A stretch of DNA of 64,000 nt, taken from positions 5,844 through 69,843 of the forward strand of contig CAZDAM010000003.1 in NCBI GenBank assembly GCA_964503595.1, written 5' to 3'. The translations under genes were made by a program, and so were the position numbers. Positions within the stretch are counted from its first letter, which is position 1. The number at the start of each line of letters is the position of its first letter. This stretch comes from an uncultured bacterium (GTDB lineage Bacteria; Muiribacteriota; UBA6191). The notes beneath the pieces were generated by a model that was given only the letters and a program-made list of their open reading frames with translations, searched no databases and was not told the origin of the DNA. This document shows positions 10,124 to 64,000 of the stretch, piece by piece.

Positions 10124-10125
10124 AC

Positions 10126-19729: not shown

Positions 19730-19730
19730 G

Positions 19731-20156: not shown

Positions 20157-20167
20157 ATCTGATCTCC

Positions 20168-21700: not shown

Positions 21701-21728
21701 TTGACATCTGGGAATTGGGTCTTAGGAT
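21701..21728 (+). promoter_or_regulatory. Putative promoter of the S1 protease gene
   Basis: TTGACA at 21701-21706, 16-nt spacer, TAGGAT. RBS ggaaagga upstream of the ATG at 21758. Confidence 0.3.
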
Positions 21729-21757
21729 TTCGGGAAATTCTAGGAAAGGATTACCTG

Positions 21758-22624: not shown

Positions 22625-22646
22625 TTGCCATCAGAAAGCAGAAGGT

Positions 22647-22674
22647 AAAAGCCCCGCTTCGGCGGGGTTTTTTC
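22647..22674. terminator. Bidirectional intrinsic terminator (GC stem with UUCG tetraloop, flanked by an A-run and a T-run)
   Basis: aaaa-gccccgc-ttcg-gcggggc... -tttttt lies between the convergent protease (+) and acr3 (-) genes. Confidence 0.7.
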
Positions 22675-22677
22675 ATG

Positions 22678-24154: not shown

Positions 24155-24498
24155 GAGGTTTCCTGGCACAGTTCGTAATTCAGCTTTGCCAATTGGGATT
24201 GAATGGTGTCGGTTTGGGACTCGATGATCTGCATCAGGACGCTGTGAGCCCAGGAAGGGAGATCCGGGTGTAGTTTGTAGTAAACCCATTTTCCTTTTCG
24301 TTGGTCCAAAAGCAGATTGCAGTTTCTGAGTTCGGCCAGGTGACGGGAAATTTTGGGCTGACTCAATTCCAGACAGGTTTGAATTTCGCAGACACAGAGT
24401 TCCCCGCTAAACCCGATTAGAAGGATGGATTGCAGGCGGGTTTCGTCTGCCAGACATTTGAAAAAGGTCAGAGGTTCCAGAAGAGATGGTTCAGTCAT
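24148..24498 (-). CDS. arsR: ArsR/SmtB family metalloregulator
   Basis: 'ELCVCE' metal-binding motif within a winged HTH. TGA overlaps the arsC ATG. Confidence 0.85.
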   Translation of the reverse strand: MTEPSLLEPLTFFKCLADETRLQSILLIGFSGELCVCEIQTCLELSQPKISRHLAELRNCNLLLDQRKGKWVYYKLHPDLPSWAHSVLMQIIESQTDTIQSQLAKLNYELCQETSC

Positions 24499-24504
24499 AT
24501 GCGA

Positions 24505-24535
24505 AATATCGTATATATGAAAAATCGTATATGAT
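24505..24535. promoter_or_regulatory. AT-rich tandem direct repeats (atcgtatat x2) in the arsR/chrA divergent promoter region; candidate ArsR operator
   Basis: 'aaatATCGTATATatgaaaaATCGTATATgatc' lies immediately upstream of the arsR start at 24498. Confidence 0.3.
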
Positions 24536-24572
24536 CAAGTAGGATAGGTGCCGTGTTTGAAAACAGGAGTTT

Positions 24573-41910: not shown

Positions 41911-42660
41911 ATGTTTAAAAAGATTGTGCCGATCACTAAAGATGCCCATAAGAAAACAAAGATCAAAGCGTTGGCAAATTTCGAGTTTGCGAAGGACGTC
42001 AACCTTGCGGCCGTGATGGTCCATGAGTTTTCCCGTGCGGCAGCGACTTACCCGATTGTGTTTCTGGAAGACAAGGAAAAGGACCAGTTCCGTCCTACGG
42101 TTCTTCTGGGCCTTGAGCAGGGCGAAAACCTGTTTGTGAAGGAAGGAAAGTGGGAGGCTTCGTACATCCCGGCCATCATCCGCCGCTATCCTTTTGCCCT
42201 GGCAAATACAAACGAAGCGGATAAGTACACAATCTGCCTCGATGAAGGCAGCGATCTGGTTAATGATAAAGACGGCCAGGAGCTTTTCGACGGCAAGGGC
42301 GAACCAAGTGAGCTGATGGAGCGCGTGAAGCGCTATCTGGGCGAGCTTCAGCAGATGGAGCGTTTCACTCAGGAGTTCTGTGCAGCGATGTCCCATCTGA
42401 ACATGTTCACTCCCCTGAATATGAAAGTGCGCCTTGGCAATGAAATCAAAAACATCAATGGGGCCTATGTCATCAATGAAGAGCGCCTGGGCTCTCTTTC
42501 GGATGAAAAATTCATCGAGCTTCGCAAGAAGCAATACATTCCGGTGATTTACTCCCACCTGAGCAGTCTGTCCCAGATTGAGCGTCTTCTGACCTTCAAG
42601 GACAAGAAGGGTGGAGTGACTCCAGATGCCATCGAACAGTTCTCGGAGACCGTGAATTGA
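41911..42660 (+). CDS. SapC family protein
   Basis: About 250 aa with 'YPIVFL' and 'PAIIRRYPF' blocks, which I recognise as the SapC family (named from the Campylobacter fetus S-layer secretion locus). Divergent from the HlyD/SecA-like operon. Confidence 0.6.
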   Translation: MFKKIVPITKDAHKKTKIKALANFEFAKDVNLAAVMVHEFSRAAATYPIVFLEDKEKDQFRPTVLLGLEQGENLFVKEGKWEASYIPAIIRRYPFALANTNEADKYTICLDEGSDLVNDKDGQELFDGKGEPSELMERVKRYLGELQQMERFTQEFCAAMSHLNMFTPLNMKVRLGNEIKNINGAYVINEERLGSLSDEKFIELRKKQYIPVIYSHLSSLSQIERLLTFKDKKGGVTPDAIEQFSETVN

Positions 42661-42680: not shown

Positions 42681-42739
42681 CCTCCGCCGTGCCAGGCGGA
42701 GGAATGAAAACAATCGGGATTCCGCTACAGGTGTAGCGG
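42681..42739 (+). other. Two tandem GC-rich hairpins between sapC and the giant gene (possible attenuator/terminator)
   Basis: cctccgcc-gtgcca-ggcggagg (8-bp stem) and ccgctac-aggt-gtagcgg (7-bp stem) followed by a T-rich tract. Confidence 0.4.
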
Positions 42740-42788
42740 GGTCCCTTTGGTGTTTCTTGGCAATTTTCGAAAAACGCAGGAAAAACTT

Positions 42789-45700
42789 ATGAGCTCAAAA
42801 ATGAAAAGCCTTGTCAGAACCCAGACCTACATGAAAGCACGCCGCTTTTTTCAGAAATTTACGAAGAAGAAGGAGGCCGCTCCTCAGGTGCTTGATGGCA
42901 GACGGGAACGCTTCCGTCTGGACAGCCTTGAAGAGAGAGTTCTGCTTTCAGCAGATCCGGTTACGGAGACGGCTCATGCGATTTTGCACGAACCTCAGAA
43001 GAACGAGTCCCGAATTGAGCTTTTAAGTGAGGCTTCCCTGCGTCAGCCTACCCTAAGCCTTCAGGAACAGCACCCTCAGGCCGCAATTGTTCTGGATGCC
43101 GGCACGCTTTCCCAGAACAGAAATTCCCTGGAATCCTCCCTTGTGATCGGCGAGAACGAAGTTCTTGGCGGCAGTGGAAATCTGGGCATTCACCTGATGA
43201 ATGATGGCACCGTTGCTCCCGGATATTCTCCCGGAGTTCAGAATGTAGCCAGCTTCACCCAGGCCGAAGGTGCGACCCTTGAAATCGAAATCGGGGGCAG
43301 TGGGGTTGCCGGGGCCTCCGATGGTTTTGATCAGCTCAATGTCTCCGGTCTGGCAAGCCTTGGTGGCAAGCTTGAAGTCACCCTTCTGAATGACTACAAA
43401 CCTCAGGTCGGAGACACTTTCGACATCCTTACCTTTGGCTCGGTGAGCGGAGAATTTGATTCGGTAGGCGGTCTTTACGGATTTTATGCAGATTATTACT
43501 TCGATGTGGTGCAAAAATCCGATCGCATTCAGCTGGTCGTCAAGGAGCTTTTGCCCGGAGATACCTTCGAGATTGCCGCTGACGAGGCCTTTCGAGATGC
43601 CATGTCGGAGTTTCTGGCTCAGGATTATCTCAAGAAGCCGACTTCCATTACCTTTACCGGCTCCATTGATCTTGGAGATGCCTTTTCGGTTGGAGGCACC
43701 TTTACCCTGAATCAGGTCAGCACCGGTCAGGATGTCACTTTAAGTGATGGGTCCACAGTCAATGTTTCGATCAAGACTCTGGGGATGCGGGGCGCTTCAG
43801 CTTCTTTGGGTGGAAGCTTCGGCCTTCAGTTCGGCGGAGCTGATCTGGGAATTGCCATTTTTGATGCAACTTCCGAAGAAGATGGCCGCAGTTGGGTTGG
43901 AGCCCAGGGAAGTCTGGAAAGCGTTTCTCTTTTGAATCTTGGAAGCTACGGCATCCAGGGAGAAAACCTTCAGCTTGACATCTTCCAGGCCCTGGGAGAA
44001 GACAATGATGTTTTAATCGATTTGTCGGAAACCCCGTTGAGTATTTCTGATGGCAGTGGAACACTGGCTGAATTCTCCAATGACGGAGTTTTTGGGGAGT
44101 ATCTGAACGTGGCTGGAAATCTCCAGCTCACCATGCCTTTTTTGAATGTCTCCGGAGATTTCTTTGTCTCCGCGGATGATGCCTCCCTGTTTCTGGCCGG
44201 AGAAAATGTCACCGCTAGCTTTGAAGCCGGAGGCATGACTCTGGGTGTAAACAATGCCCGCTTTGGGGCCTACATTTTTGAAGATCAGAGCATGGTTCTG
44301 GAAGCAACCGGTGGCCTTGTCATGAGTGGAGGCGATTTCACGCTTCCTACTGGCGATTCTGTGAGCCTCAAATACAACACCACTGGCATCGAATTCACCG
44401 ATCTGGAAATGGCGATTGGGGAGAGATCCTTCACTTTTGGAACCATCGAAGCTTCCGAAGAACTCCTGGAATTGAGCATCAGTGGCTTTGAAGCCAACCT
44501 GGGCGGAGTGTTCGGGCTGTCCGGAGACTTCGGTTTCCGCAAAAACGGGGAAGATCTGAATGTGGTGGCTCAGAATGCTGCCGTAAGCCTGAATGCTGGC
44601 GGCTTCAAGGCTGGAGTGAAAGACGCCACCCTGGGTCTGAAAATGAGCGATCTGGGAACCGCCATGGAAGCAACCGGCGCGGCCTGGTTTGAGCTTGGAG
44701 ATGCAGTTTCCCTGAGTGCTGACAGTGTCCAGGTGCTCTATAACGAAACCGGAGAAGACCTGATTGGAACCAGTCTCTCGGCTGCTTCTCTGGAATATAC
44801 CTTTACAGCAATTGAGGGTTCGACGACCCTTCAGCAAGTGGCTGTAAGTGGGGCCAGCCTGGAAGTGGCCGGCTTTGTGCAGGCCAGCGGTAATCTTGCC
44901 GTCAAGCGGGATGAAGTTGCTCTGGAGCTTTCGGATGAGTCCCTGGTTCTGGCCGAGCTTTTGACCATTGGTGGCAAGAATGTAAGCGCCTTTGCCGGCC
45001 TGAATGGTGGCTCTTCCTCCGCTTTGGGCCTTCAGATCAGCGCCCTGACTTTCGGGGTCGCCCTGATGAGCGAAATCGATGGTGAGGAGAGAAGCTGGAC
45101 AGCCGTCTACGGGGAAGCCGAATCCGCCGGATTTGTCGGTCCAGACAGCCTCACGATTTCTGCCAGTGCCCTGAAACTCGAACTGAATCTGGCCTCAGAA
45201 GACGGCCTGGTAGTGGATTTCTCGGAATTCAGTCACAGCGTTCCCGTTGGTGTGGGCGAAAGCCTCAGCCTTACGATGGACGCTCAGCGGGGCGAACTGA
45301 TCAGTGTCAGTGGCAACCTGAACATCCGCATCTTTGATTTCTTCGCCGTCTCCGGAGGCTTTGCCCTGGAAAAATCCACAGAAACTCTGAGGCTTTCGGA
45401 TGAAAGCGAAGTGGAAGTGGAGCTTCTGACTCTGGGAACCCAGGGAGTCTCGGCTTTTGCCGGTCTGAATCATGGCAGTGACAATGCCTTTGGTTTCTCT
45501 TTGGGAGATGTGAGCCTGGCTTTGGTCATGGCCACAGAAAAAGAGGATTCCTCCCAGTCCTATGTGAGCCTGAAAGCTCAGGCTGGCAGCGTAGCCTTTG
45601 AAGGAATCCCCGGAATCACCATTGCCGCAGATACCCTGGCCGTGGAACTGAACCTGGCATCAACAGAAGGTCTTTTGGTGGACTACTCCACCAAAGCCCT

Positions 45701-48700
45701 TACCGTACCCACGAGTTCTTCCACCAATATGAGCCTCACTATGGATTCCGAGGATGGCGAGCTGGTACGCGCTTCCGGAAATATGGATCTGGATCTCTTC
45801 GGCTTTGTGCAGGTTTCCGGGGGCTTTGGTTTTGAAAAGAAAACTGAAGTGGTGACTCTGGCTGATGGCAGCGAAGCCGAAGTCGATCTGATGACACTGG
45901 GGGCAAATGATGTCTCCGCATTCGCCGGAATCGCAGCTTCAAGCTCAAGTCGGGTGGGCCTTGCCTTAAGCGGACTGAATTTCGGTCTGGCCCTGATGTC
46001 CGATAAAAGCCGGGATGATCGCTCCTGGCTGGCCCTGAAAGGAAATGTAGGGGCTGCCAGTTTTGAGGGAATTCCTGGAATGGAGCTGGCCGCAGAATCC
46101 CTCAAGCTTGAAATCAACCGCTATACCGGAGAAGAAGGCGCATCCACAACCGAAACGATTGTGGAAACCTCCACGGAAACGGTCACGACGGAAAATACTC
46201 AAACCACCACAACAACAACCAAAACCGACACGATCTACAAACTGGATCTGAATGGGGTTGTGGCTCCGATTACTTTGAAACTGGGCGGAGAAACAGCCAC
46301 GATTCAGGTAAGCAAAGGGGCCGATTCGGATTCATTGCTGACCTCGATCAGGCAGGCTCTGGAAGGTTTTGCTGCCATTGGCGAAGGCAATGTTACCGTA
46401 AGTGGCAATCTGGTGGCGGGCTTTGAAATCCGCTTTCTGGGCGATCTGGCGGGAACTTCGGTGGAAGGCCTGAGTGTTGAGACCAGCTTCTTTGAAGTTT
46501 CCACAAACAGCTCGGAAACAAAGAATGCTCTGGTGGGCCGAAGTGAAAGCCAGACTCTGACTATTTCCAATCCAACCCTCAAGGGTTCGGGACGCTACAC
46601 CTTAAGTCTGGATGGCAAGAGCACCGGCGAAATCCGTTTTGCCGGATCCGATGTGGGCAACAATGCCCGCTATATCCGTGAGGCTCTGGAAAAAGTTTCC
46701 GGTATTGGAGCGGGTAATGTGAAGGTGGTCTACGACCAGAACTCCTCCACAACCAGCCAGCGCTATATCATCACCTTCAAAAAAGGTCTGGCCTACACCG
46801 ATATCAGCCTGCTTCAGGCCAATAACAATGGTTTGAAGAATGCGATTGTGGCCGTGACTCCGGGGCAGGATGGTTCCGTTGCCAGAGGAGAAACCAACCG
46901 GGTTTCCATCAATACCCTCGGCGATGTGGATCTGAACCTGCGCTTCACGATCAACGGCAAGGAATACCGCACGGATTATTTTGAGTCTGACTCTTCCGCC
47001 GACAAAGTGAAGTTCATGATTGAGCGGGAAGTCTACAGGGATGATATTGAAGTCCAGGTGACCGAGATCGCCAAAGGCACCTGGGACATCACCTTTGGAG
47101 GGGCTGCAACTGGGGTTTCCCTGGATGATTTTCTGGTGAATACATCGCAAAGCATTGAGTCTGCCAAGCTTCTGGTTTCCCAGATGGGTAAGACGGATGT
47201 AGAGACGGAGACGACGACTACCAGCAGCACGGAAACCATTGAGGTGGAAGAGACCACGGTTCTGGAATATCCGGCAGATGTGGTGGTGGACTTCTCTGAG
47301 AGCAATCTTGATGTTCTCACCGGACCCGACGCGACCATTGGGATTGATTTTGACGGAGATCTTGGAAATCTCCTGAGAGCTTCCGGAAATCTGAATATCA
47401 ATCTGTTCAATTTCTTCTCGGCATCCGGGGCTTTTGCTCTGGAAAAGTATGCCAGCGAAGTGACCCTGGATGATGGAAGCACCCTGGAAGTGGATATGCT
47501 CACCATCGGCGGGCATGGAATTGATGCTTTCGCGGGCCTTAACGGAGGAAGCCCTTCCCGTGTTGGCTTTGAGCTCGAGGCTGCTGATTTTGCCCTGGCG
47601 ATTATGACTGGCGTGGAAGACCCGGCTCTTCAATACACCAGCCTTCATGCCAGTGCCGGAAGTGCGGCTTTTGTTGGCTTTGACAATCTCAGAATTGCGG
47701 CAACCGACATCGAGATCCAGATCAATCAGGCTGATGAATACGGCTTTGTCGTGGACTGGCTGAAATCTCCTCTGGCCCTGACGACTGGCCCTGATTCTTC
47801 CACAGAAATGAATATGGATGGCTCGCGTGGAGAGCTTCTGAGCCTGTCGGCCAATATGGAAATCGATGTGGCCGGATTCTTCATGGTCAACGGACGCCTG
47901 GCCTTTGAAAAGTATGAATCCGTTGTGAAGCTTTCGGATGGCAAGGAAGCCGCAGTCAATCTGATGACGATTGGCGGCAAGAATCTCAATGCCTTTGCCG
48001 GAGTCAACGGAGGCAGTTCCGATCGGATGGGGATTGCCATCGACAATACGGAATTCGCCCTGGCCATGCTTCAGGAAAAAGGCGAAGGAGGCCGTAGCTG
48101 GACTTCTTTGAAAGCAACGTCTGATTACGCTGGCCTGGTGGGCCTTGATGGAATTCTGACGCTGAACGGGCAGGGCATTGCCGTCAATATCAATGACAGT
48201 GCTGAGGATGGCACGGTTGTGATGTATGGCGAAGAGGGCATGGCCATTCGGACCAGCGCGGATACCTCGCTGATTCTTGATATGAACCACCCAGGCAAGA
48301 TCATGCGGGCTGAAATCTATCGGGCTACTCTGGATATTGGTGGTTTCATCCAGATTCTGGGTGGAATCTATTTTGAGAAGGCCGAAAACGTCGAAGTGGA
48401 TGTTCGTACCGGCCTGCCGCTGGACTTGAGTGCCAATACTGGTTTGAGCTCCATCAGCTCGGATCTGCAACGTCTTAAGAATGATGGAATTCTGAGTGAG
48501 GACAATCAGACTCTGACCAATCTGAAGGTGGATTCCCTGACTTTTGGAGCCGGAGACGTTGATGTCTTCGTTGGCTACGGCCCTTATTTTGTGGATTCCA
48601 ACAATGATGGTGTCATCGATAGTCATGACACCCCCAACGAGGATGCATTCGGGTTTTCCCTGGAAAATATCGATGTTGGCTTTGTCACCATGCAGGCGGC

Positions 48701-51700
48701 CAAATCGGTGGATCCGAACGGCGTCATTCCCAAGATGTTTGCCCTGAAGGCGTTCTGGGCGGATCCGCTTGATATTGACTGGGGTTTCTTCAAATTTGAT
48801 ATCGATAATCTGATAGTTGAAGCGAACCAGGGTTCCAAGTGGAAGGGCACCCAGGCCACTCCATTCATTGATTTTGCCTCAAGCTTTGAAAACGGCTATG
48901 CCATTCCGACCCCAGGCGGCGATTCGGACATCGTTCTGGATTACAGCTCCTCCGTGATCGGAGCGTCTTTTGGACATACGCTTCTATCGATTGAGAATTT
49001 CTTCACGATTGAAGGTTCCTTCGCATTCTACAAATACGGTGGCATCACCGTTGATATCGCTACCGGACTTCCCGGAACCCTGCCTACCGGAACTGACGGA
49101 AATACCCGTACCGGTCTTCAGCAGCTGAAGAGTGCGGGCTATCTCTCGGATGACAATTCCCGCATCATGGCAATGCCGATGAATGTGATCACCATTGGTG
49201 GAGATCAGGTCAATATCTATGTGGGCGATGTGGATGATCCATTGCTCTCCTTCACCGACATTGATTTTGGAATTGCCCTTTATACCGCTGATAAGGGAAT
49301 TGATACCAAAGGGATCATTCCCCGCATGTATTCCATGCGCGCTTCCATTCCGGATGCCGTTGATATCGACTGGGGCTTTTTGCAGCTTGAAGTCAAGGAT
49401 CTGGTCCTAAAGGCCAATTCCGGAAGCCAGTGGAAGGGCCTGACCGGTCTGAAGCCCTATGTGGATTACACCACAAGTTTTGAAGAAGGCTTTGCCATTC
49501 AAACCGGAAATGAGCCCGTTATTCTTGATTATAACCGTGGCTTTTTGGGCGTGGAAATGGGTTATGCCCTGGTGAATATCGGGGACTTCCTGTTTCTGAA
49601 CGGCTCCTTCAATCTGGAAAAGACCGACAACGTTGCGATCGATATCGTAACCGGATATACCTCATCTTCCTTCTGGACCGCTCCTTCCAAGGTTCAGGCC
49701 GGTCTTCAGAAGATGGGTGGATTGTCTTCGGACAAAACCCGCATTGAAGATATGACGATGTCCGGCTTTGTTCTGGGCGGGGACAGTGTCAATGCCTTCA
49801 TTGGAATGGGTCCTTACTTTGAGGACACCAACGGGGATGGCCGGATCAATTCGGATGATGTCAGAAATGATGGTGCCATTGGCTTTGCCGTGGACAATCT
49901 TGATATTGGTCTGTCCATTTTCAAAAGCATCAAGGCTCTGGATCCGGACAAGGTCCTGCCGACATTCTATGCCCTGAAAGCCAGTGTGGATGCGATCGGT
50001 CTGGTTGGAATCGATTTCTTTGAACTCTCAGCCGAGGGCGTGACCCTCAAGGCCAATTCCGCGAGCAAGTACAAAGGTGCCCAGGTCAGTCCCTGGATTG
50101 ACTTCACTCAGAATTATCCTGATGGATTTGAAGTTTCCAAGGGCAACGGGGAATCCGTCTTCCTGGACTTCAGGGATCCGATTCTGGGGATCAATGTTGA
50201 ACGGGCCACCTTCATCATTGATAAATTCATTCATATCCAGGGAGCCTTCTCCTTTGAGCAGGGAGCCCGTCACCGTGTCAGTGTCGATACGGGAGTGAAT
50301 ACCTTCACAGGCTCTGCTCTGGCGGGCACTCTTGCCCAGCTGGAGCTCAAAACCGATGCTGAGGTCTCTTCCGACTGGACCCGGATTGAAAACCTGGAAG
50401 TGATTTCCACCACGATTGCCCTGAGTGATGTGGATGTTTTCGTAGGCTTCGGGGAACCTGATTTTGATCAGGACTTCAAAGAGCAGGACGATCTTTTCGG
50501 CTTTGGTATCAAGGACGTGGATCTGGCCATCGGCATGTTCAAGATTGCTGCCGACGTCAAAAACTTCCCGACTTTCATGGCCCTTTATGGGGCATCCAGC
50601 CAGTTTGAACTGTTCACCGGTCTTGATTTCTTTGAGTTCTCAGGGGAAGCCCTTCAGATCGAGCTGAACAAGGGAACCAAGTGGAAGGGCTCCGTTGCAG
50701 CTCCGACCATCAATTTCAAGGACAGTTTCCTGCCAGTTGGTGATAAGCCGGCTGGAATGGAGACGGTTGCCGGAACCGAAAGTTTCTACCTAGATTTTGC
50801 CGGTCCGGTCATTGGAGTCCAGGTCTTTGATGCTGTCATGAGAATTGACGGCTTTTTGCACATCGCTGGTGATTTTGCCTTCCGCAAGGAAACCACCAGG
50901 CAGACCATTAAAACGACTCTGGGATCCTATGAGGATGTAAACCTTGAGGCCATGAGCATTGCGGCCAATGATGCCTACCTGTTTGCCGGTCTGAGCTATT
51001 ACGATTTCTCTTCCGGGGAAATGGAGACTCTGGTCGGGGTTGAACTGGAGAATGTGAATGTCGGAATCGGTATGTTCAAGCCGACTCTGGACAATTCTCC
51101 CCTGATTACATCCCAGAAATTCCAGTTCACCACGGTCAAAGCCCATGCCGATCGGGCGGCCCTGGTAGGAATTGAAGATCTTCTGACTGTGGATCTTCGT
51201 GATATCACGATTGAAGCCAATCTTGGCAAAGGCAGCAATCCACTTCTGAAGCCTTTCATTGATTTCTCGGAAGATCCCTATGTGATTGAAGTTGGTGGAG
51301 AAGAAGTCGTCTTTGATTATGACAACAGCTGGCTTCTGGCATCTGTTGGTCTGGCCCATCTTCAGCTTTCCCAGTTTCTTTACCTGCATGGCTCTCTTGC
51401 TATCAGCAAAGCTGGAGCCCGTGAAGTCAAGGTCAATGCCGGGGAGTTCTCCTCTCTTCTGGGTGGAGATACGGTGACCCAGAGTGTTGAAACCATCACC
51501 ATCGGCGGACAGGATCTTTACGGTTTTGCCGGAATCGGCGGACCTTACCGCGAGGATTCCAACGGGGATGGTGTGATTGATGATCAGGACGGGGTCAATG
51601 ACTCTGCTCTTGGGGTCAGTCTGGAGGATGTGGATTTTGGGGTTGCCGTGATGACAACGGTTCTTCCCGGAGGCCTTCCTGCCAAGGGTCTGCCGACCTA

Positions 51701-54700
51701 TGTCGCGACCAAGGCCCATGTTGGACGGGCTGCCCTGATTGGTATGGAAGAGTTTCTGGATGTGGAACTCAACAAGGTGGAAGTCAATATCAACACTTCC
51801 ATCATCAAGGGACTGCCACCTCAGGCAGCTCTGGTGGCCCGCCTTCCGAACATCAATTTTGAAGAGTCCTTTGAAGAGGGTTACTACGCTGTTCCTACCG
51901 GGGCGGATGATGTCCTCATGGACTTCAATAATGAGCTGATTGAAATTTCGATTGGCTATGCAGAAGGAAACCTGGCCGGAATTCTTCAGCTCAGCGGTTC
52001 CATGGCCTTTTCCAAGCGGGGCTCGGAAGAAGTGACCTTAACGGATGGAACCAAGAAAACGGTTTCCACTCTGAGTCTGGGGATTGGAAATGCCTACGGC
52101 TTTGTCGGCTACGGAGGTTACTGGAGAGATTCCGATGGCAACGGCAAGATCGATGAAAACGATATTCCGAATACCTCAGCTGTAGGCCTTGCCATTGAAG
52201 ATTTGAATGTTGGCGTTGTATTCATGCGCGCCATTGACAATACGGATGTCTATGTCGGAGCCCAGGCCGATCTGACCAAGGCCGGATTCGTCGGAATTCC
52301 GGGAGTTACCTTTGAAGGCCGTGATTTCAGCCTCAGCCTGAATGCTTCCGTGACCGGTCCTGCCGTGGATTTCTCGGTATCCGGTGCAGATGGTGGGGCA
52401 TATCATGTGAAAACCGGTGAATTTGATCCGGAAACAGAAGAAGAAATCGATATCCTTCTGGAGCATGATGAGAAGCTTCTGGCAGCCCAGGGTGTTGCTG
52501 AAATCAACTTCTTTGATGTGGTTCAGATTGACGGAGCCTTCGATATCACAGTCGCAGAGTCCGGCATTGTGCTGTTTGCGGATGGCGATGCCTTCATCGG
52601 TGCGGGTGGCATTGGAATGTCCACCAGTGTGACCGGTCTTGTGGCCATTGAAGATGGTATGGCCATGCGTCTGAATCTGGAGCAGGGTCTGGATCTTGGA
52701 CCTCTGGCTTCCTTTGATGCGGAATTTGAATTCCGGATGAATACCTTTGGCCGGGACTATGTCTATGTGGTTCCGGAAAAACTCAGGGAGAAAACCGGAT
52801 TCGATGAATTCGTGGTTTCAGCCAAAGCACCCGGACAGGATGAGGTTTCCGATTTCTATGTCTCCCTGACCGGAGAAGGACACCTGAGTCTTCTGAGTGC
52901 TCTTGATATTGATGGTGAATTTGCAATTGTCTTCACCGAAGACAGTGCCCGTCTGGAAATCGGCGGCATCATCGATATGCCTCTGTTTGAACCTATCGGT
53001 GTTACCGGAACTCTCGGGTTTGAGGATGGCGGGCTTTACGGAGCTCTTCAGCTCGGACATCCATCCGGTTCGACTCTGATTGATGCGGGAGTTTTCTCCA
53101 TCAGCGGTTCTTTCCTGCTTCAGATCAATACGACATCGGAAACCCAGACCGTCAAGGCTCTGGACTTTTCTGAAGACGGAACCATCATTGGTTTCACTAC
53201 CAGAGAGATTGCCGCGGAAGAACTCTATATCGCCGGAACTGCATCGATTGAGCTGGCCGGATTTCTGGAAATGTCCGGCTCCGCAAGCCTGAGGCTGAGT
53301 TCTGAAGGAGTGGAAGCCGATCTGGCCATGAGCCTGGATCTGGGAGCCTTCGGAAGCCTGGAATTCAAAGGTGCTGCCGCAATTCTGAATACTGAGGATG
53401 AGGGCGCGGTCTTTGCCCTGAGCGTGGAAACCAATGTTGTCCTGGGCATGGATATTGTCGGAATTCAGGCTGGAGCCCTGCTTCAGATCAATACCAGCTC
53501 CATGCACGAATATGCAGGTGTTCAAGCCGGAACCACCTTCCTTCTGGAGCTCGACGGGGCCCTGAAGCTTCTGGCCTTCAATATCGATTTTGCCGGATCG
53601 ATCAGCGTGATTGACGGCATCTTTGAACTCCGAGTTGATGAAGCCAGTCTGAGCTTCTTCAATTTCGTGAATATTGAAGTCAGCGGATATTTCCGCTCGG
53701 ATGGAAAATGGAGAGTCAGTGGCGAAGCCCATATGAACATTGACATGGGTCCACTGGAACTCAGTGCCGGCTTTGAACTCACGGTCGGGCACGACATCTT
53801 CCGGGCAAGGGTCTATGGTTCTTTGGATATCAATATCGATATGGGGCTTTTCTCCATCAATGAAACCCTGGCAGGTTTTGAGGGTCTGATTGAAATCACG
53901 GAAGCCTCGGCCCACCTGAAAGCATCCGTTACCATTGTGGGAATCAGTGTCTCCGGTTCCATGACCTGGAGCTGGGGTGCTCCTCCGGTGATTGCTTCCC
54001 AGGTTGGCGACACCGTCATCCTTCACATGGGTGATGATGCTGACAAACGGGGCGATCTCTATCTCGACATCGTCAACGAGACCTATCACATCGAGGAACA
54101 GAAGGGAGTCCTGACAGTCCGCGCCATGGGTGAAACCATGGAATTCCGCAACGTGAAGCGGATTGTCGCCAAAGGTGGCAATGGCAATGACACCATCATT
54201 GTTGGCACGGGTGTTACCGCCAAGCTCGAATTTGATGGAGAAGACGGAACGGACACTCTGCTGATTGCCGGAGGTGCTGAGGGCTCTGTCATTCGTGGTG
54301 GTGCCGGCAATGACTATATGGTTGGTGGAAACGGCGGCATCTACTATTACGGGGATGGTGGCAATGACACCTTCATCGGGGGCGATGGCGGCGAAATCAT
54401 TGACATGGGTACCGGCAAGAACACAATTACAGCTGCCGGTGGAAATGACGTTATCTATATCGGAGCCGGGAATAACACGGTAGATGCCGGTTCTGGCAAT
54501 GACACCATGTATGTGGGCTGGAACGGGTATCTGGAGCTCACTGCCGGATCCGGAGAAGACATTGTCATCATGGATACCCTGGCTTCCAACGAGTCCCTGA
54601 AATTCAAGGATCACAGTCTGGAATACAGCTTAAGGGCCATGGACTTCGGTGATGATCTCGAACTGATTCAGATCAGGGATACCGCGGCGACCACAAAAAT

Positions 54701-57700
54701 CGAGAACAATGGTGTGGACAGCTGGGGTTCCACCGGGCTTTATCTGGAGTCGTCCGGAGTGCTGGATGTCACCGAAGCAAGTCTGATCATGCCCAAAGGG
54801 CAGGTTACCCTGATTTCTCAGGGCATCAACGGGGTTCTGAACACCCAGATCGACACGCTTACGGTTGTAAACCATGCCACAGGTTCTTACGCGGACATTG
54901 TCATTCGTGAAGTCGATGATCTGAAGATTGTGAAGAATGGTCTGGCCCAGGGAGGCATCTATACAGCCGGGGGTCAGATTGATATTCAGCTGAATGCCCA
55001 CGAAGCCAATCTTCATCTCGAATCCGGAATCATCCGGACCCATGGAGCCGGAAAAGGCATTCGCATTGTTGCCGATGATGTGGACTTCAATTCCGGTAAA
55101 GACATGGTTACGGCTTCGGGGCAGTTTGAGCTTCTGACCCGTTCCCAGTCTCAGGGTTACCGAATCGGTGGCGCTGGTCAGTCCTCCTTTGGCAATGACT
55201 ATACCCTCGGCTGGGATAACGGCTACCTGAATTTCTCCATGAAAGACGTGGAAGCTCTGACTGACGGCTTCAGTCTCCTGAAATTCGGCACCGAAAATTC
55301 CACGGCCCTGATGTTTGTCGGGGATCTGGAAAATGCTGACGTGGATGTGAAGCATTTTGATGCCAAAATCACGGATGTTGCGGAATTCCATGCCCGCCGG
55401 ATCAATATCGTCGGGGATGTTCAGGCTTCCCAGAAGGTGACTTTTGCCTCCGAACTCCTGGAAATCTGGCGAACCAATATCAACAATCCGTTCGGACAGC
55501 CGGACTCAGGGATTACAGGCACCGAACTTGTCCTGAATATCAGTGAGCAGATGCTGGTGACCGGCTACATCCGGGCCGAGGACAGCCTGAAAATCCGGGT
55601 GAATGGATCGACGGGTCAGGGTGCCATGGTGACCTATGGAGCCGAGCCGAATTCCTTCACGGCCGATCAGGGCAGTTCGATTGTGACCCTGAATGATGGT
55701 GCCGTCCTTGATATTGAAACGTCCGGCTCCATTTACAGCGCCACGAATATCGAGGTCATGGGCAAGAACTCCCAGCTGAAGATGAAGGCGGGAACAGGAC
55801 TTACCATCCTGGAAGGAGCCGTGGTCGCGGCCCGTTATGACAACAGCTCGATTCTTCTTGAATCCAGCAAGTATCTCCACATCAATTCTGGTGGAGCGGT
55901 TACTGCGGGAGCCCGCTTTGATGATATCAACGGGGAACCGGTTGCCGTAAAAACCGGGGCAAATGCTTCCATGACCCTGAAAACTTCCGGGGAAATGAAG
56001 CTTTCCGGCTCGATTACAGCGTCGGGAAGTATGGAACTGAGTGGGGGCGGGGCAGAATCCGACTACAAAGATTACTTTGATACGATTCCCGGAAAAGTAC
56101 TTGGAAAAATGGTGGCATCGGATACGGTGCTGGCAGCTCTTCAGGCTGGAAACATTGATTCAGCCTTAAGGCAGCTTTTCGCTGAAAATCATCTGGATCT
56201 TGGCAACAGTGTCAGCGTGAACGGAGTCGGTTCCTACACTTCTTTCAATGATCTGACTCCGGAACAGAAAGCTCTGGTGGCTCAGGCTCTGGGCTATACC
56301 GTCTATGAGGGCACCAATTACTACAATCCGGATGCGCCTGCTGGAAGACAGCTGATTGATGCCTTCATTGAAGGCAACAGTCCATTCCTGCAACCGGGAC
56401 AGACTCCCGCGGATCTGGGCTATACCTGGCATGCAGGCACTTTCTTTTACAACCCGCTCACCGGAGAAATCCTCAGTGGTTTCAAACAGGGTGTGTCCGC
56501 AGACTATGACAATGCGGATATCAACTGGGGCAGTGCGGGAGCTCCCGCTTCCGGCACCGGTTTTGATGCCCTTACCGCAGATCAGAAACTCAAGGTTGCA
56601 GCTCATCTGGGATACCAGACCGATGATGGCAAGGATTTCTATAACTTCAATGCTGTTCAGGGTAAGAAAGTGGTTCGCACCTTCACCCAGGGACTGGTAA
56701 CCCAGTACCGCAATGCGGATATCTACTGGGGCAATGTTGCCAAGCCGTCGGATTCCCAGTCATTTGCAAGTCTGAGCGCTGAACAGAAAGCTGTTGTAGC
56801 CAGAACTCTTGGTTTTGAGATGGTCACTGGGGGCGCCTATGTAAATCTCAATGCCAGTGCCGGCTTACAGGTGGTTTCACAACTGACAACGGCTCCAGCG
56901 GATTACCGGTTGTCCCAGATTGATTTTGCGGGAGTTCCGGCTCCTCAGGAAGGGACAGCCTTTGAATCCCTGACTCTGGAACAGCGCAATCATGTGATCA
57001 GCGCACTGGGATACGAAGTCTTTGAAGGTCTGCTCTATATCAATCCTGAGAGCGGATCTCTGGTCACGACATTTACCAGCTACAACGGGGTTGAGTGGGG
57101 CGATGATCTGGCGGCTCCGGCCGAAGGCACGCCATTTGAAAAACTGTCCGGCCAGCATCAGCAGAAGGTTCTTGAGAGTCTTGGCTACAGGGTTTTCACC
57201 GGAACGGCCTACTACAATTCCGACGCAATCCCAAGCAAGCAGTTTGTGCAGGGTTTTGTCGAGGGAGTGGACTATCTGAATTCGGCCATAACCTGGTCCA
57301 GGGTAGAGATTCCGGATGCAGGCACAGCCTTTGAGGACATGACTGCCAATCAACAGAATGCCCTCCTCAAGTCCCTGGGCTATGAAGTCCACAACAACAC
57401 GGTCTTTTACAAGGCAGGAGCTCCGCTTGAGACCCGCCTGATGACAAATTTTGTGGAAGGTCTTCATTACAATAATGCTGATATGCCTTGGGGCGAGTCC
57501 GGAACGGCCGTGACCAACCGCTACATTGTGAATGACGGAACAAATCAGTACGTCATCTACACTCTGGATCAGGAAAATGATGGAATCATCGATGAGATCC
57601 AGATCCAGAAACCGCATGAGCTTCTGGGCCAGCGTGGGTATGGATTCCTGCTGACCGGTACGATTACAACACTGGAAGATGGCCGGGATCTGGTCATTGC

Positions 57701-60700
57701 CAGTGAAGATGACACCATCATCCGGGGCAATATCAACCTGTTGGGAGCAAACTCGGATCTTACGGTTCAGTCCGACAAATGGGTCTTCTGGGAAGGGGCT
57801 GCGAACGTAACCGGAAATATCACGGTTCAGGGTGGAGTTTCTCTGGATGGAACCAGTCTGAATGGTGCCCGTGCCGACGGGACCAGTGTTCTGATTACGG
57901 CAACTTCCAAACTGGTTACCAGTGGCGCTGGAACTTCGATCACCATTCAGGGTGGTCAGGATGTGGACATCATTGGCCGCATCATTGCCGGTGGAGCCGC
58001 AAACAGCAATGGAGTCCAGTTTGCCGGGGATGATTCCCGTGTGGATATCACGGCCGGGCAGCAGATCTATGTTGACAGTGTCGTAACGGCCGCCAAAGCG
58101 GTGACCTTGACCACAACCGGTGTTCCTGGAGCCGATGATGCCTCCCAGGGAGTGATTGTCACTACCGCGGCTGGCCTGACCACGGCTGGTGAAACCAGTG
58201 ACAATTCGGGTGGACTGGTAAAAATTGATGCTGTGGGTGGCGTTCAGATTATGGGGATTGTTCTCTCCGGAGGCACGATTTCCCAGACCTTTGATGCCAA
58301 TGGTGTCCTGACAAGTGAAACGATTGCCTATTCTACCGAAAGGTCATCTGTTGAAATTTCCAGCCAATCCCAGACCTATATTGGCGGGATGGCCCGTACG
58401 GAAACCGGGAATATGGTTGAAGTCGGTGGTGTGATTCGGGCAACCCAGAATATTACTCTGAGCGGAGGAACAAGCTCGGACGATATCGGAGTCAAGCTCC
58501 CCGGTTCCGCCAAGGTGGTCACCACGAACCGCGACAGCAGCATTGTTGTGAATTCCGCTCAGGATGCAGAAATTTATGGCCTCCTGATTGCCGGTGGAAT
58601 TATTACGGATCACCGGGATTCGCTGGGCCTTTATCTGGGGACGACTGTTGAGACTCTGGATGGAAACTCCACAATTTCCGTAGAAGCAGGACATCAGATC
58701 CGGCTTGGTCGTGATCTTTACGCTGGCAAGCTGATTGATCTGAGGGGCGGAACGGATCCTGCCGATGGATCCTCGGAATTTGCCGGTCAGGGCGTTGTTG
58801 TGGGTGGAGCCGTCCATCTGAAGACTTCCCAGGCTGGTTCGACCATCAATCTGAGTGCTTCCGGGGATACCTCCATTCTGGCTCCGGCCTGGACCCAGGA
58901 AATCATTGCGGATGGTTTTGCCGAGTTTGCCAGTGGCAAGCTCAGCCAGGATGTCAGCCTGCATCTGATTGTGAATCTGGGAACCCATACGGTGGAAGGT
59001 ACGGTTCAGCTCAGCGCTCAGGAAACCCAGAACAATACCGGGCTGGCTTCTTTGGTTGCCGATCTGAATGCGGCACTTCTGGCCACCAACTTTACGGTGA
59101 CGGCTTCTCCAGGTGGAAATCCCGTGGTTGGATCCACCCAGCTTTTCAATGCCAATGATCCCGAGGTAACCATCCGTCTGACGGACGGTCGCCTCATGCT
59201 GACTTCGGCCTTTGAAATGACTCTGAAAGGGGATTCCAGCGATTCCCTGATTGGTTTCACCCAGAGTGGGGATGTAGCTTCCACCCGAAGCTACACCATG
59301 GATGCTTCAGCCAGTGGCTCCGTCATCAACATTGGTAAAAAAGATGCCCCCAACGGTCAGATTTATGTGGCAGGCAATCTCAGGGCTCATTCTGCCATCA
59401 ATCTCTATTCCGGTACTGAAGGGGACGGTTCCCAGAATTTCACTCTGGGAGCAACCGGGATTCTGGAAACCCTGAGTGGCAGCGTGGAACTCAATCCGGG
59501 AGATCATGGGGTCATTACCGGGACAATCATTGCCCGCGGTCGCGGTGCCGACATTATCGTTCATTCCAAGCATACCCTTGAAATCAAGGGAACCCTGAAA
59601 GCTCAGGATGACATCACGATCACGGCAGGCTCAATTGAGAAGGCCGGAGAGGAAAGCATCCGAACCCATGGAACCAGTGAACTGATCACTTTTGATGATG
59701 ACGGCCGGATTCTGATTCAGGGTCTGAATGATGTTGTCATCAACAGTGTTGTTGGAACCGGGGGCGGAGCCTTAAGGGAAGTAACGGTTGAATCCACAAC
59801 GGGTACCCTGACTCTGGAAAAAACCTCGGGTCAGATTGAAACCGGTGGTCAGCTGAACCTCAAAGGCAAGAATATCGATCTGGCAGGTACGATCACCAGT
59901 ACCCGCGCGACAGATGCGACTTACGATCATGAAATTTCCATTCAGGCTGAGAATGATGCCAAGGTTCATGGAAACCTGACTCTGGCTGGCTCACTTCTGA
60001 TTGAAACTGGTGGCAATCTTGAGATTTACAACACCAGACTGATGATCAACGGTGAGGGGCAACGGCTGAAAATCCAGAGTACGGGTGATGTCCGTCTGGG
60101 TACAACGGCTCCGGTTCAGGGCCAGGCCAGTGATCGTGCAGTCATTCTTCAGGCCAATCAGCTCATGGATATTCGAACGGATGGGGCCTTCCTTCTGGGA
60201 AGTGATGCCCAGCTCTATACAACCGCGAATCTGAGCGAGATGAAAATTCAGGCTCTGAGCGCGTCGATCGTCGGCTCCATGAGAGCCGGAGCCAGCTTTG
60301 ATGGAACTTCGTCCTATACTTATACAGGGAAAAATTCCAGTCTCAAGCTGAGCACGGATGCTGCTGTTTCCGTTGGAGGCCAGGGCCTTGATGAAAATGC
60401 CAATCTGGTCTCAAGGGGTGGAGATATCTTTGCAACCGGCAAGGTGGATCTGCGCACTGGTATTGGGACCAACGGTCTGGGCATGACGGTTTCCACTTTA
60501 AGCTCCATTCAGGTGGATGCGACTGGTGGCGGGGCTCTGGCAGATGATATTGATGGCCAGATCAACCTGAGATCCGACGGCAGCATTCAGCTTTACGGTA
60601 CTGTCCTTGCCAAGGACAGCGGATCGGATATCAAGATCCAGTCCGAAGGCCTGCTTCTGATCGACAATCTGGTATCCGCTCAGGATCACCTGGAAGTCAT

Positions 60701-63700
60701 CGGCGGAACTTCCTCCTCTGGTGGTCTGATTGTGAACAGCTTTGCCTTTGATGGCAATGATCAGAGAATCGCGGGGGGAACCCTGAATACGGCTCTGAAT
60801 GGCACGATGGTGATCGAGGCTGTTGGCACGATTTACCTCAAAGGGGTTATAGGTCAGCTGGATGGAAGCAACAACGCGATCACTTCCTCGATTTCGGTGG
60901 ATTCCACTGCCGGCGATGTCACGGTAACCGGTCTGGTGGATGCCAGAGATTCCGTAACCATGCTTGGAACGGATCTGAACATCATGCAGGATGCCCACGT
61001 ATTCGCTCAGAATACAGGGGCTCAGGTTCTGATGGATGCCCGCGATGAGCTCTATGTCCAGTCTTCTCAGGCCAGCGGGAATTCCGATGGTCTGGTTTAC
61101 GCTGACAATCTGCTTCATTTAAGAGGCGGGAGCGTTCAGATTGACGGGATTGTGAAGTCGCTTGCGGCCAATTCCCAGATGTTCATTCATTCCGCAGATG
61201 ATCTGATTGTACGTGGACTGGCTCAGTCCGCCGGTAGCGCCACTCTGGCAGCCGGCGTTTCCAGAGACGCTACTCTTGCGACCCTAAGAGCCGGTGTGAC
61301 GACCTCAAACCTGCTTGGAGGAAATGTCCGCATTCTTGGTCAGGGCATGGTGGAAGCCGTTGGCAATGCCAGTGTCCAGGCAGGCCAGGATGTCATTATC
61401 AGTGCCGATTCAACGGTGGCAGGAACCCGGGTCGTTCAGATTCCGGTCATTACAACGGTCGAAGAAACCATCACGGTAACTGTGGGTTACCAGGAAGTTG
61501 CTATCGGGACTGTTTCTGTGCCCGTAATCAGCTGGGAAACCAGTTCGATCACCGAGCAGATTGGAACCGAGAAGGTCAAGGTGGGTGCCGAGAATCTGCG
61601 CATGGATGTCACCCTGCGCCAGACCGGTTACTACAACCCGAATGCTCCGGAAGGTCAGAAATTCCGTGAGATTCTGATTGAAGGCATTGATTACCATAAT
61701 GATGAAGTGAACTGGAACAATGCCGGGAATGAGGCGACTCCAGGTCGTACTTCCGAAGCGGTAACAGCGAATTATAAAGATGCCAGCTATAAGGGATTTA
61801 CCAGCCTGAACGATGCTCAGCGTCAGGCCGTTTTGAACCATACGGGCTACATGAAGCTCTATCAGTTCACCTATGCCAATGCCATCCTGGAAAAAACCCT
61901 GAATGGAAATTACACCGAAACTGCCGTGACTCCTCAGTGGGCAGGCAACGAGCAGGTAATCTACCGTATCGAGGTCGATGGCTGGAAAGACAAATATATC
62001 CAGATGCCCAAAGGTGCCCAGAACGACATTCTGAATGTGGTCACTCAGGGCGAGGCCAAATACCTGACTGGTGATACCACCCGTAACGGGAATAATGATG
62101 GAACCTGGGTCAGTGCTTCTTCCAATCCGGGAGGAGAGCTGGTAGGTCGTTACAAGGATCAGTCCGATGTGAATTACACTCAGGATCGTTCCGACTATTA
62201 CTTCCCAAATGATGGCTACCCTTCCGGGTATCTGAGTCCACATGATGCGGAAGAAGATGGAGAAGCCCGCTGGGATGTGAACTATTCCTCGAATTCCGGA
62301 TATCGTCATTTTGATGTGGAAAGCCGCAATGACAATAAATCCATGATGCGGGATCCAAACTGGTTCTGGCAGGGTACGGCCAAAGCTGACGGCGATGATG
62401 ATTACACAACCGGTTTTGACAATGATCGCTATACCCAGTACATCTGGGCCCAGCAGGATTTCCTGAGCACGCTGTCAGCCGATACGGCGACCTTTGAAGA
62501 AAAATCGACCTCGGTCCGTCAGGATCAGGAAGCTTTCAAGTTCAAGTACTGGAGCAGCTGGTACGGTCTTGGCGGCTACTGGATGGACAATGACGATGGT
62601 TCTGAGATGCCCTATGGTGAAGAGGAAGATGTTCCGACCTGGGGCTGGAGGGATCTGACTGCTGGTGATGAGTCTGTTCTGAAAAGTGTCTGGACGGGTC
62701 ATGATGTCTCCGGTGATAACAACTGGCATCACGATGGGATGAATTTTTCCCACAATTACCTGACAGCGGGCAATTTTTCGAACTGGAAGTCCAATTACCA
62801 GTGGCTGCAATCGACCAGTGTTTACACCACCCAGTTCGGTGGGGATGATGTCGGAGGGTTTGTTCGGGGTAAGTTCGAATACACCCCGGATGACTACGTC
62901 CATGTCGGTGGAGATGGCATCCATAAACGTCCGGTCGTTCTGCAGGATTACAACGACTATGTCTATGACTGGATTTCCGATTGGCATGATATCTATGATC
63001 AGAGGATTCAGCTTCAGTATGAGCTGGTGACTCAGTCTCAGGATATCTTTGACTACCGGCCGATTTATGAGACCAGCACCAAGCAGGTCAAAATCACCCA
63101 GTTTGAAAATCAGACGGTCTGGGAACGTCAGGCGATCACGGATACGGAAACGATTACCTGGACCCAGCGGGATTTCCAGAACGGGGATACCCGTTCCTAC
63201 GGGGAATTTGATGGGGAGTCTCTGAAAGGCTCTGCCATCACGATTTCCACAAACCGTGATGTGACGGTCAGCGGTCTGGTCACGGCAACAGACAGCCTGC
63301 TTGTGAACAGCGGGCGCAATGCTACGGTTCAGGGGACGGTGGCAAGCGGTGCTGAACTGGCTTCCCAGTCCCGTTTAACGGCGGCAAACAGCATCACGGT
63401 CGAAGCTGAGAGCAAGCTGAATCTCATGGATTCAGCCAAACTTGAAGTGACGGCAGCTGACAGTGATATTGTTCTGAAAAGCTCTGGCACTATGAAGGCC
63501 GGCGGTGAAATCCTGGCCAAGGATACAGTGACTTTGAAAGCTGCTACCGATCTGGAGCTTTCAGCATCCATTCAGGCCGGAAATCTGGTAGAGATTAGGG
63601 CAGGGGATTCGACTGTCGGAGATATTCTTGATGGAGACATCACGGCCAATATCTCGGCTCAGATTATCGTGACAGAGGCAGGCTCTGACATTGTCATGAG

Positions 63701-64000: not shown

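Follow-up and report, generated by a model that had tools for sequence, protein, structure and literature searches.

The present study concerns a very large open reading frame (ORF) and the genes beside it in a 64,000-nucleotide stretch of contig CAZDAM010000003.1 from an uncultured bacterium, hereafter referred to as the window. The giant ORF begins at an ATG at position 42789 on the forward strand and runs off the end of the window. A SapC-family gene lies directly upstream, and divergent from SapC is a three-gene operon (the cassette), in which a gene for a GAF-HlyD protein comes first, followed by genes for an M50 metalloprotease fusion and a truncated SecA paralogue (Table 1). The giant is of a known kind, the LEPR-XLL class of giant proteins, to which it adds a member. 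The cargo, its conserved leader, and a complete candidate set of motor, protease and adaptor are all found within 7 kb of the window. Herein, we describe the giant gene and the genomic association of such giants with the cassette, and we lean towards a route in which the giant would be exported N-terminus first by the adjacent SecA-like/M50/HlyD proteins.

The giant gene, its product and its neighbours

The giant ORF is a real gene that is incomplete at the window edge. First, the frame of the ATG at 42789 continues for 7,070 codons to base 63998 with zero stops upon translation, and the remaining five frames of 42789-64000 contain 46-370 stops each. The closest in-frame stop upstream of the ATG is at position 42705, and a Shine-Dalgarno-like AGGA is located 9 nt 5' of the ATG. 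The out-of-register frames show a stop frequency of approximately 4.3-5.2%, from which the chance of a stop-free run of 7,070 codons is estimated at approximately e^-340. Second, when a log-likelihood of codon usage was trained on 19 of the window's other genes, the giant's frame ranked at the top in 14 of 14 consecutive 1.5-kb intervals, with the in-register antisense frame always second. Third, the 46 stops of this antisense frame exactly match the TTA, CTA and TCA sense codons of the giant (13, 5 and 28, respectively), and the long minus-strand ORFs (46602-48626 and 52818-54614) are therefore shadow ORFs. An earlier reading of the DNA, made from the letters alone (the sequence-only reading), had anticipated one unterminated giant frame from the ATG at 42789 and had taken the minus-strand ORFs for antisense artefacts, and both claims are borne out by these results. 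The giant was missing from the ORF list because the list omits ORFs that run off the window.

An alternative is that the frame does not represent one functional gene, but a pseudogene in decay, a chimera of repeats created by the assembly, or an artefact that codes for nothing. In favour of such an origin are the metagenome-type source contig, the frequent breaking of assemblies at giant repeat genes, and the fragmented look of relatives in long-read contigs. However, the long stop-free run and the uniform coding statistics argue against such an origin, as do the lack of near-identical DNA repeats able to cause mis-assembly, the collinearity with an independent contig at 50% identity, and an identical 5' end on an independent Logan contig, and we therefore consider it very improbable. 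The pseudogene reading was rejected on these grounds. The collinear relative, encoded on an 82-kb metagenome contig (L086), is collinear with residues 3191-7070 of the giant and 50% identical over 3,976 residues, which shows purifying selection. Tandem Repeats Finder found no DNA-level tandem repeats in the giant gene, and the repeat copies are 25-48% identical at the protein level; the absence of repeats in the DNA indicates that the protein repeats are ancient.

The L086 protein extends at least 3,333 residues past the equivalent of the window edge in Thr/Ser/Gly-rich repeats, with the frame open over all 23 kb fetched, and Pfam gave no match on this continuation. The full giant product is probably longer than 10,000 residues, and the window holds the 5' two-thirds of the gene or less. 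Because the source contig is 77,270 bp long, at most 13 kb more of the giant gene has been assembled. A metagenome scan for the 3' end of the gene returned this one relative (46-50% identical), and a contig search based on SapC returned only a 6-kb Logan contig, which carries an identical 5' end of the giant gene. The window's own giant product was not found in the large protein database searched.

Table 1. Features of the giant gene and of the genes beside it (positions in the window; aa, residues of the giant unless a protein length is given; TM, transmembrane; pLDDT, predicted local distance difference test; RRE, recognition element of ribosomally synthesized and post-translationally modified peptides, RiPPs)
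Feature	Position	Strand	Residues	Basis or remark
Giant ORF, LEPR-XLL class, Cys-free	42789..64000	+	at least 7,070 codons	5' complete, 3' cut by window edge
N-terminal leader, basic, hydrophilic, predicted disordered	42789..43079	+	aa 1-97	pLDDT <50 for residues 1-31 and 33-97
LEPR-XLL motif, FRLDSLEERVLLSADP	42912-42980	+	aa 42-64	NF012209, 23.4 bits (cutoff 17)
Right-handed β-helix module resembling the autochaperone/passenger end of autotransporters	43101..43562	+	aa ~105-258	
First block of 155-aa-type long-strand antiparallel β-sheet repeats	43656..46133	+	aa ~290-1115	
Insert with Thr/Glu-rich linkers at its edges, two to three ~90-aa modules	46134..47279	+	aa 1116-1497	sequence
Second block of the same β-sheet repeat family, units growing from 155 to ~218 aa	47280..52598	+	aa 1498-3270	
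Single internal RTX block, ~9 GGxGxD-type nonapeptides	54156..54563	+	aa ~3790-3925	CyaA 7rah_E, E=3.9e-7; motifs
Six units spaced 58-106 aa (mostly ~65 aa), F..L[ST]..Q......LGY.V	56196..57518	+	aa ~4470-4910	
Thr/Ser/Gly/Asp-rich solenoid-like region	57519..61475	+	aa 4911-6229	composition; weak self-matches
Trp/Tyr/Asp-rich repeat-free region	61476..63188	+	aa 6230-6800	rare
Start of a further solenoid-like region	63189..64000	+	aa 6801-7070	continues at least 3,333 aa in relative L086
SapC-family gene, directly upstream of the giant	41911..42660	+		PF07277, E=4.4e-73
Strong terminator-like hairpin between SapC stop and giant ATG	42716..42745	+		13-bp stem, 8 GC pairs, T-rich tail
GAF-HlyD protein: cytoplasmic GAF, one TM helix, periplasmic HlyD-type adaptor	39906..41753	-	615 aa	
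M50 fusion: N-terminal PqqD-like RRE, ~6-TM M50 metalloprotease, C-terminal adaptor-like domain	37758..39902	-	714 aa	
Truncated SecA paralogue: DEAD motor, preprotein cross-linking domain, second P-loop domain	35792..37753	-	653 aa	

The available product is acidic, rich in Gly, Thr, Ser, Asp and Ala, and contains 0 Cys in 7,070 residues, the last of which fits an extracellular protein. Pfam returned nothing above its cutoffs on the giant, the sole match being a sub-threshold HemolysinCabind (22.3 bits against a cutoff of 23); NCBIfam reported only the LEPR-XLL domain at the N-terminus, and a PDB sequence search retrieved only RTX blocks (CyaA and related proteins) at residues ~3804-3925. Using self-comparison and a register motif, about 16 divergent copies of the β-sheet repeat, for which Pfam has no model, were recognized over both blocks. 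In the insert between the blocks, one pair of the ~90-residue modules is significantly similar (z 5.6) and the other pairs are weak, the third module showing no significant similarity to the other two. A stretch related to the ~65-residue units was also observed by BLAST at residues 6279-6408, and the region of residues 6230-6800 had only 5 relatives in a word-indexed search of 5.8 billion proteins. The AlphaFold2 model of residues 1-1100, built from an alignment of eight orthologous partial proteins, has a mean pLDDT of 76.7 and is all-β beyond residue 97 to residue 1100, with antiparallel strands of 15-20 residues. The PDB matches of this model obtained with Foldseek (barrel walls and ApoB; TM-score ~0.1) were rejected as generic β-meander similarity and not homology, and a model of residues 6200-6810 was discarded, with a mean pLDDT of 34. 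For the N-terminal architecture, an exhaustive HMMER search at E<=1e-30 gave 284 cluster representatives, including many multi-thousand-residue fragments, indicating that this family is sizeable, yet unannotated; the long-strand repeats form a fold family that has no annotation and is represented by hundreds of clusters. A hydropathy scan of the giant revealed one marginal TM-like segment only, and an integral-membrane protein was rejected on this basis. Taken together, we infer an almost all-β protein bound for the cell surface or exterior. The sequence-only reading had described a mosaic of repeats with RTX and β-helix-like regions. Several repeat types, one RTX block and solenoid-like stretches are indeed present; however, the stretches called β-helix-like (residues 3925-4430, 4911-6229 and 6801-7070) showed no strong periodicity in the periodicity analysis.

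The hairpin between SapC and the giant could act as a terminator or attenuator that uncouples the two genes. In the cassette, the HExxH (residues 209-213) and NxxPxxxxD (residues 303-311) motifs of the M50 fusion are intact, and the SecA paralogue, in which the scaffold/wing domain and a TM helix are absent, retains an intact Walker A (GEGKT) and DEAD box and falls under every SecA/SecA2 family cutoff (522 bits compared with 814 bits for the SecA equivalog). The combination of truncated SecA_DEAD/PP_bind, M50-HlyD and GAF-HlyD proteins with no ABC (ATP-binding cassette) transporter places the cassette among the "secondary SecA_DEAD" loci. No type I ABC exporter was found in the 64-kb window, the sole ABC transporter being MsbA in a lipid A cluster. 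Residues 1-130 of the M50 fusion are cytoplasmic and resemble a PqqD-type RRE. Of 28 M50-fusion homologues, 20 gave matches to Pfam PqqD that cover the whole profile (best E=7.5e-8). A profile of the family had PqqD itself as its best PDB match (3g2b, residues 12-94 of 95, E=0.093). The presence of this domain is supported at the level of the family, whereas the single copy of the window matched below threshold (E=0.099). The domain was reported neither in the 2015 description of the cassette nor in whole-protein Pfam matches.

The giant had also been labelled a typical biofilm or host-adhesion giant, and this label is not sustained. No immunoglobulin-like (Ig-like), cadherin-like or other adhesin repeats were matched in Pfam or NCBIfam, including Ig-like or cadherin-like extender domains, and the fold of the repeats is a different one, a long-strand β-sheet. 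The label is further weakened by the short and internal RTX block, by a LEPR-XLL leader in place of a LapA-type retention module, and by the neighbours, which form an ABC-less SecA-like/M50/HlyD apparatus in a window with neither a type I ABC transporter nor a TolC gene. An adhesive or cell-contact role of the giant is nevertheless plausible.

The LEPR-XLL leader and its association with the cassette

Membership of the giant in NF012209 is supported both by score and by size (short name "LEPR-8K"; at least 7,070 residues). The leader has no Sec signal peptide and no hydrophobic core. In the aligned N-termini of cassette-linked giants, the maximum 12-residue hydropathy ahead of the motif is -0.55, and the common pattern is F-x-[LIV]-[ED]-x-LE[PQE]R-x-LLSAD, preceded by a short lead-in that is basic and hydrophilic. 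This motif is common to at least 20 giants of several phyla, and the bodies that follow differ, comprising β-sheet repeats in the window, cadherins with a C-terminal anchor in L071, and β-propeller repeats in L003; in other words, the LEPR-XLL leader behaves as a portable tag. The L071 protein (15241-20856) is a complete cassette-linked LEPR-XLL protein of 1,871 residues without RTX, in which DUF4347 directly follows the leader, cadherin repeats come next, and the C-terminus consists of a hydrophobic segment and a tail rich in Lys. DUF4347 apparently also occurs directly behind the leader in L059.

These N-terminal features bear on the possibility that the giant is a β-helical exoprotein of the type V pathways (two-partner or autotransporter), resembling FhaB. 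Such a possibility draws on the autotransporter-like β-helix module and the long Thr/Ser/Gly-rich solenoid-like stretches. However, the giant has no Sec signal peptide, Pfam and NCBIfam detected neither a two-partner secretion (TPS) domain nor haemagglutinin repeats, and the window contains no gene for a TpsB/Omp85 partner. In the giant, the autochaperone-like module is at the N-terminal, and not the C-terminal, end of the passenger, and the C-terminus lies outside the window. A type V exoprotein was rejected for want of a Sec signal, a TPS domain and a TpsB gene in the window, and we regard it as hardly credible.

For export by the cassette, the reading favoured herein, related loci were compared. 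A scan of one genome per species, in which two aligned M50 fusion proteins served as the query, yielded 211 relatives, and 80 loci were fetched. These loci span Verrucomicrobiota, Planctomycetota, Fibrobacter, several proteobacterial classes, Nitrospirota, Lentisphaerae and Acidobacteriota, and keep the order of HlyD-type gene, M50 fusion and ~650-residue SecA paralogue. All 76 complete homologues have the M50 motifs; in the SecA paralogues, the DEAD box is kept in 63 of 63 and Walker A in 59 of 63. Clustering of the neighbouring ORFs placed an OEP/TolC-like gene next to the cassette in 21 loci and SapC in 7, and an ABC exporter was observed in only 1 of 81 cassette loci.

Several results show that the cassette and LEPR-XLL giants are associated in genomes. 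First, an ORF of at least 1,500 residues is present in 19 of the 25 loci having at least 18 kb of total flank. Second, where the N-terminus was visible in these loci, a LEPRxLL-type motif, counted when within the first 120 residues, was present in 10 of 12. Third, over all loci the motif is present in 12 of the 15 giants cut by the end of their locus, compared with 4 of 417 ordinary ORFs; the three motif-less giants comprise one with the variant VEPRLLF, one that continues a LEPR gene, and one spurious Arg/Pro-rich ORF. Four Fibrobacter loci (L026, L045, L060 and L064; ~1-9970), which derive from metagenome-assembled genomes, show a different layout: the upstream slot is filled by a giant gene, a same-strand ORF of at least ~3,300 residues that ends within ~10-40 nt 5' of the gene for the M50 fusion, and a GAF-HlyD gene was not detected. 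A gene for a response regulator with GGDEF and EAL domains is near the cassette in 7 loci (L040, 344-2125, and six others), which together with the GAF domain of the adaptor hints at second-messenger control of export.

The loci of the giant's own relatives were also inspected. SapC lies upstream of relatives of the giant in L002, L003/L004 and L087. The relative P0001 has SapC upstream, and its cassette is on another contig of the same metagenome-assembled genome (MAG). In L003, the cassette, OEP, SapC, a LEPR gene and an 8,608-residue gene are found together. The 1,718-residue LEPR-XLL protein of this locus (10001-15157) stops mid-repeat ("...SEKAGTQRKWTAL"), and the 8,608-residue gene (17511-25157) begins within that repeat ("...SEKAGTERKWTALQ..."), two small genes lying between them; the pair has the look of a single giant gene that was interrupted by an insertion or was broken in assembly or gene calling. 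The relatives carry MAG labels (Pedobacter, Arcobacter and Rhodoferax) that disagree with one another, suggesting mis-binning or horizontal transfer of these loci.

A possible route of export

Herein, we propose a model in which the giant is threaded through the adjacent cassette. First, the unfolded leader motif would be bound by the PqqD-like recognition domain of the M50 fusion, encoded 3 kb upstream. Second, the truncated SecA paralogue would push the unfolded chain in an ATP-driven manner, and the M50 membrane domain would form or guard the inner-membrane passage and probably clip the leader. Third, the two HlyD-type adaptor domains would join a TolC-like duct encoded elsewhere in the genome, through which the giant would exit N-terminus first in a single step. 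The autochaperone-like β-helix would then emerge first after the leader and nucleate the folding of the long β-sheet repeats, and the RTX block and solenoid regions would fold outside, where calcium is available. The position of an autochaperone-like fold directly behind the leader fits such N-first emergence. SapC may be a co-encoded accessory, and export might be gated by a small ligand, as the GAF domain suggests. We infer leader binding, leader cleavage and the direction of transport, as well as the extracellular location and any adhesive function, from the genes and their arrangement, and judge this route somewhat probable.

Several points weigh against this route. The function of the cassette is a prediction from genes alone everywhere it occurs, and the M50 domain as a protein-conducting channel is likewise a supposition. 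No TolC gene is present in the window, and the window's own M50 fusion matches PqqD below threshold (E=0.099). The architecture of RRE, M50 and HlyD is otherwise typical of the maturation and export of small peptides (RiPPs). In addition, SapC is present in P0002 with no cassette within the 10 kb available upstream, and neither SapC nor cassette was found within the available sequence (10 kb upstream) of P0004, P0006 and P0007. Finally, the C-terminus of the giant is outside the window, leaving room for a classical C-terminal type I signal, and a Vibrio LEPR-XLL giant has been reported with RTX and serralysin domains at its C-terminal end (PMC10868602).

The last of these points favours a different explanation, in which the giant is a type I RTX adhesin that leaves the cell C-terminus first through distantly encoded ABC, HlyD and TolC proteins, with SapC as an accessory and the cassette as a release switch resembling LapG/LapD. 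The RTX block, the lack of cysteine, and the acidic Gly/Asp/Thr-rich composition would suit such an adhesin, and the M50 protease and GAF sensor could serve as a release switch. SapC takes its name from the type I operon sapCDEF of Campylobacter fetus. In addition, a C-first route through SapC, TolC and HlyD has been suggested for the giants Cag_663 and Cag_665 (10.64898/2026.03.19.712371). However, the only ABC exporter of the window is MsbA, encoded within the lipid A cluster, and ABC exporters are similarly rare among the cassette loci (1 of 81, as above). Moreover, the RTX block of the giant is short and internal, the LEPR-XLL cargo of L071 ends in a membrane anchor without RTX, and a release switch has no need of a SecA motor with an intact preprotein-binding domain. 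We therefore consider the type I explanation rather unlikely.

It might also be supposed that the cassette serves another substrate, for example a small leader-bearing peptide, and that its adjacency to the giant reflects co-regulation or a shared island, the giant having a separate route. The PqqD-like RRE and the HExxH intramembrane protease resemble RiPP machinery, PqqD matches were obtained, and the NCBIfam model daptide_HExxH scored 155 bits, under its cutoff. However, no conserved small ORF was noticed beside the cassette, although no systematic search for one was made; the large genes that recur beside it are only those for LEPR-XLL giants, OEP and SapC, and the conserved motif of the cargo sits exactly at the leader position. 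These results render a separate substrate quite improbable, and export of the giant by the cassette remains the reading that we favour.

A broader hypothesis, which we put forward tentatively, is that LEPR-XLL is the leader of a distinct, widespread and ABC-independent secretion pathway of diderm bacteria, specialised for giants, in which an RRE-M50-adaptor protein would read and cut the leader and a truncated SecA would propel the chain N-terminus first through HlyD-type adaptors and a TolC-like duct. If true, the pathway would merit a number of its own among the secretion systems, with both its signal and its class of cargo defined. The question of how signal-less proteins of 10,000-plus residues cross two membranes is involved, and a part in cell-cell contact, predation and symbiosis is increasingly attributed to giant bacterial proteins. 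Taken by itself, the giant gene is of moderate interest; the locus is of greater interest as a compact, testable case of probable dedicated giant-protein export.

The remainder of the window is chromosomal DNA of a diderm, as indicated by genes for LpxI, two LpxB, MsbA and a lipid A acyltransferase at 2-8 kb; the two LpxB paralogues (2790-3926 and 5671-6840, + strand) flank the MsbA gene. The nearest named homologue of this MsbA is 62% identical ("Ca. Cloacimonetes" MAG), unnamed sequences reach ~53%, and named matches below ~40% identity are spread over several phyla, consistent with a poorly sampled lineage. A 307-residue protein of the chymotrypsin/trypsin family (PF00089, E=1e-65) is encoded at 21701-22624 (+ strand), in surroundings otherwise made up of genes for metal and oxidative-stress functions, namely an ACR3-type SBF transporter, an ArsC-like low-molecular-weight phosphatase, a chromate transporter, a Cu/Zn superoxide dismutase, and a Czc pump of the resistance-nodulation-division type.

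Comparison with known systems

Type I RTX giant adhesins, such as LapA, SiiE and MpIBP, resemble the giant in being giant, repeat-rich, Cys-free and acidic, with calcium-binding RTX nonapeptides; HlyD-type adaptors are encoded nearby in both, and a TolC-type duct adjoins the cassette in related loci. Unlike these adhesins, the giant has no Ig-like repeats, a small internal RTX block, no ABC transporter, and an N-terminal leader that replaces the retention module. The accessory SecA2 systems that export serine-rich repeat adhesins in Gram-positive bacteria likewise place a specialised second SecA beside a very large surface protein, one to which general Sec would be poorly suited. However, those systems operate in monoderm cells with SecY2, Asp proteins and a signal peptide of the Sec type, whereas the window encodes an M50 protein and HlyD-type adaptors in a diderm, its SecA has no scaffold/wing domain, and a TolC partner is found in related loci. 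The giants of Omnitrophota carry built-in SecA domains, for which a role in self-export has been suggested, and unusual large antiparallel β structures (10.1101/2023.11.21.568195). In both cases, a SecA DEAD motor and a preprotein-binding domain without scaffold/wing are tied to giant genes; however, in Omnitrophota SecA and many TM helices are inside the giant (10.1101/2023.11.21.568195), whereas the window encodes a separate SecA of 653 residues. Finally, the proposed recognition of a leader by a dedicated domain and its cleavage by a protease fused to the exporter recall the peptidase-containing ABC exporters and the RREs of RiPP systems. The proposed route differs from these in a substrate of thousands of residues, an intramembrane M50 enzyme as the protease, and a SecA-like motor in place of an ABC domain.

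The described features of Cag_663 and Cag_665 of Chlorobium chlorochromatii are also similar, and the comparison is one of such features and not of direct sequence homology. These proteins have an N-terminal LEPRxLL, are preceded by sapC, and have no known transport signals; an N-terminal filamentous β-sheet is followed by a C-terminal β-helix of 12-14 thousand residues, and both are co-expressed with a horizontally acquired secA and moved into the partner cell (10.64898/2026.03.19.712371). Similarly, the giant of the window has a LEPRxLL motif of ~24 residues, SapC directly upstream, an extended N-terminal β-sheet and, as judged from L086 alone, a very long C-terminal β-helix-like region. In contrast to the Cag_662-665 locus, no TolC gene adjoins the giant of the window and a SecA-like cassette is immediately adjacent; moreover, haemagglutinin-type repeats, HK97-like inserts and MtxA-like C-termini were undetected in the available part of the giant. 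The Chlorochromatium preprint favours a route through SapC, TolC and HlyD and leaves the SecA_DEAD cassette unmentioned (10.64898/2026.03.19.712371).

The cassette itself closely resembles the "secondary SecA_DEAD" locus of Kamneva, Poudel & Ward (2015), who suggested type-I-like secretion in which SecA would be the ATPase and M50 might form the pore (PMC4452313). Genes META1p2399-2402 of Methylobacterium extorquens AM1 are named in that paper (PMC4452313). As in that locus, a truncated SecA_DEAD, a Peptidase_M50-HlyD and a GAF-HlyD gene form one ABC-less operon, and the spread across phyla is patchy, suggesting horizontal transfer (PMC4452313). Some cassette loci contain a fourth HlyD/biotin-lipoyl gene and an OEP gene, which are absent from the window. 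The 2015 paper gives no cargo, and the words "giant" and "large protein" do not occur in it (PMC4452313). Beyond that description, the present study links the cassette to LEPR-XLL giants here and in the 80 loci, and points to a PqqD-like domain on the M50 fusion. As far as the literature could be searched, neither the connection of the cargo class and its leader to the cassette, nor the RRE domain, nor an autochaperone-like module at the N-terminus has been stated before. The 80-locus comparison joins two literatures that do not cite each other, one describing a cassette lacking a cargo and the other describing LEPR-XLL giants lacking an exporter.

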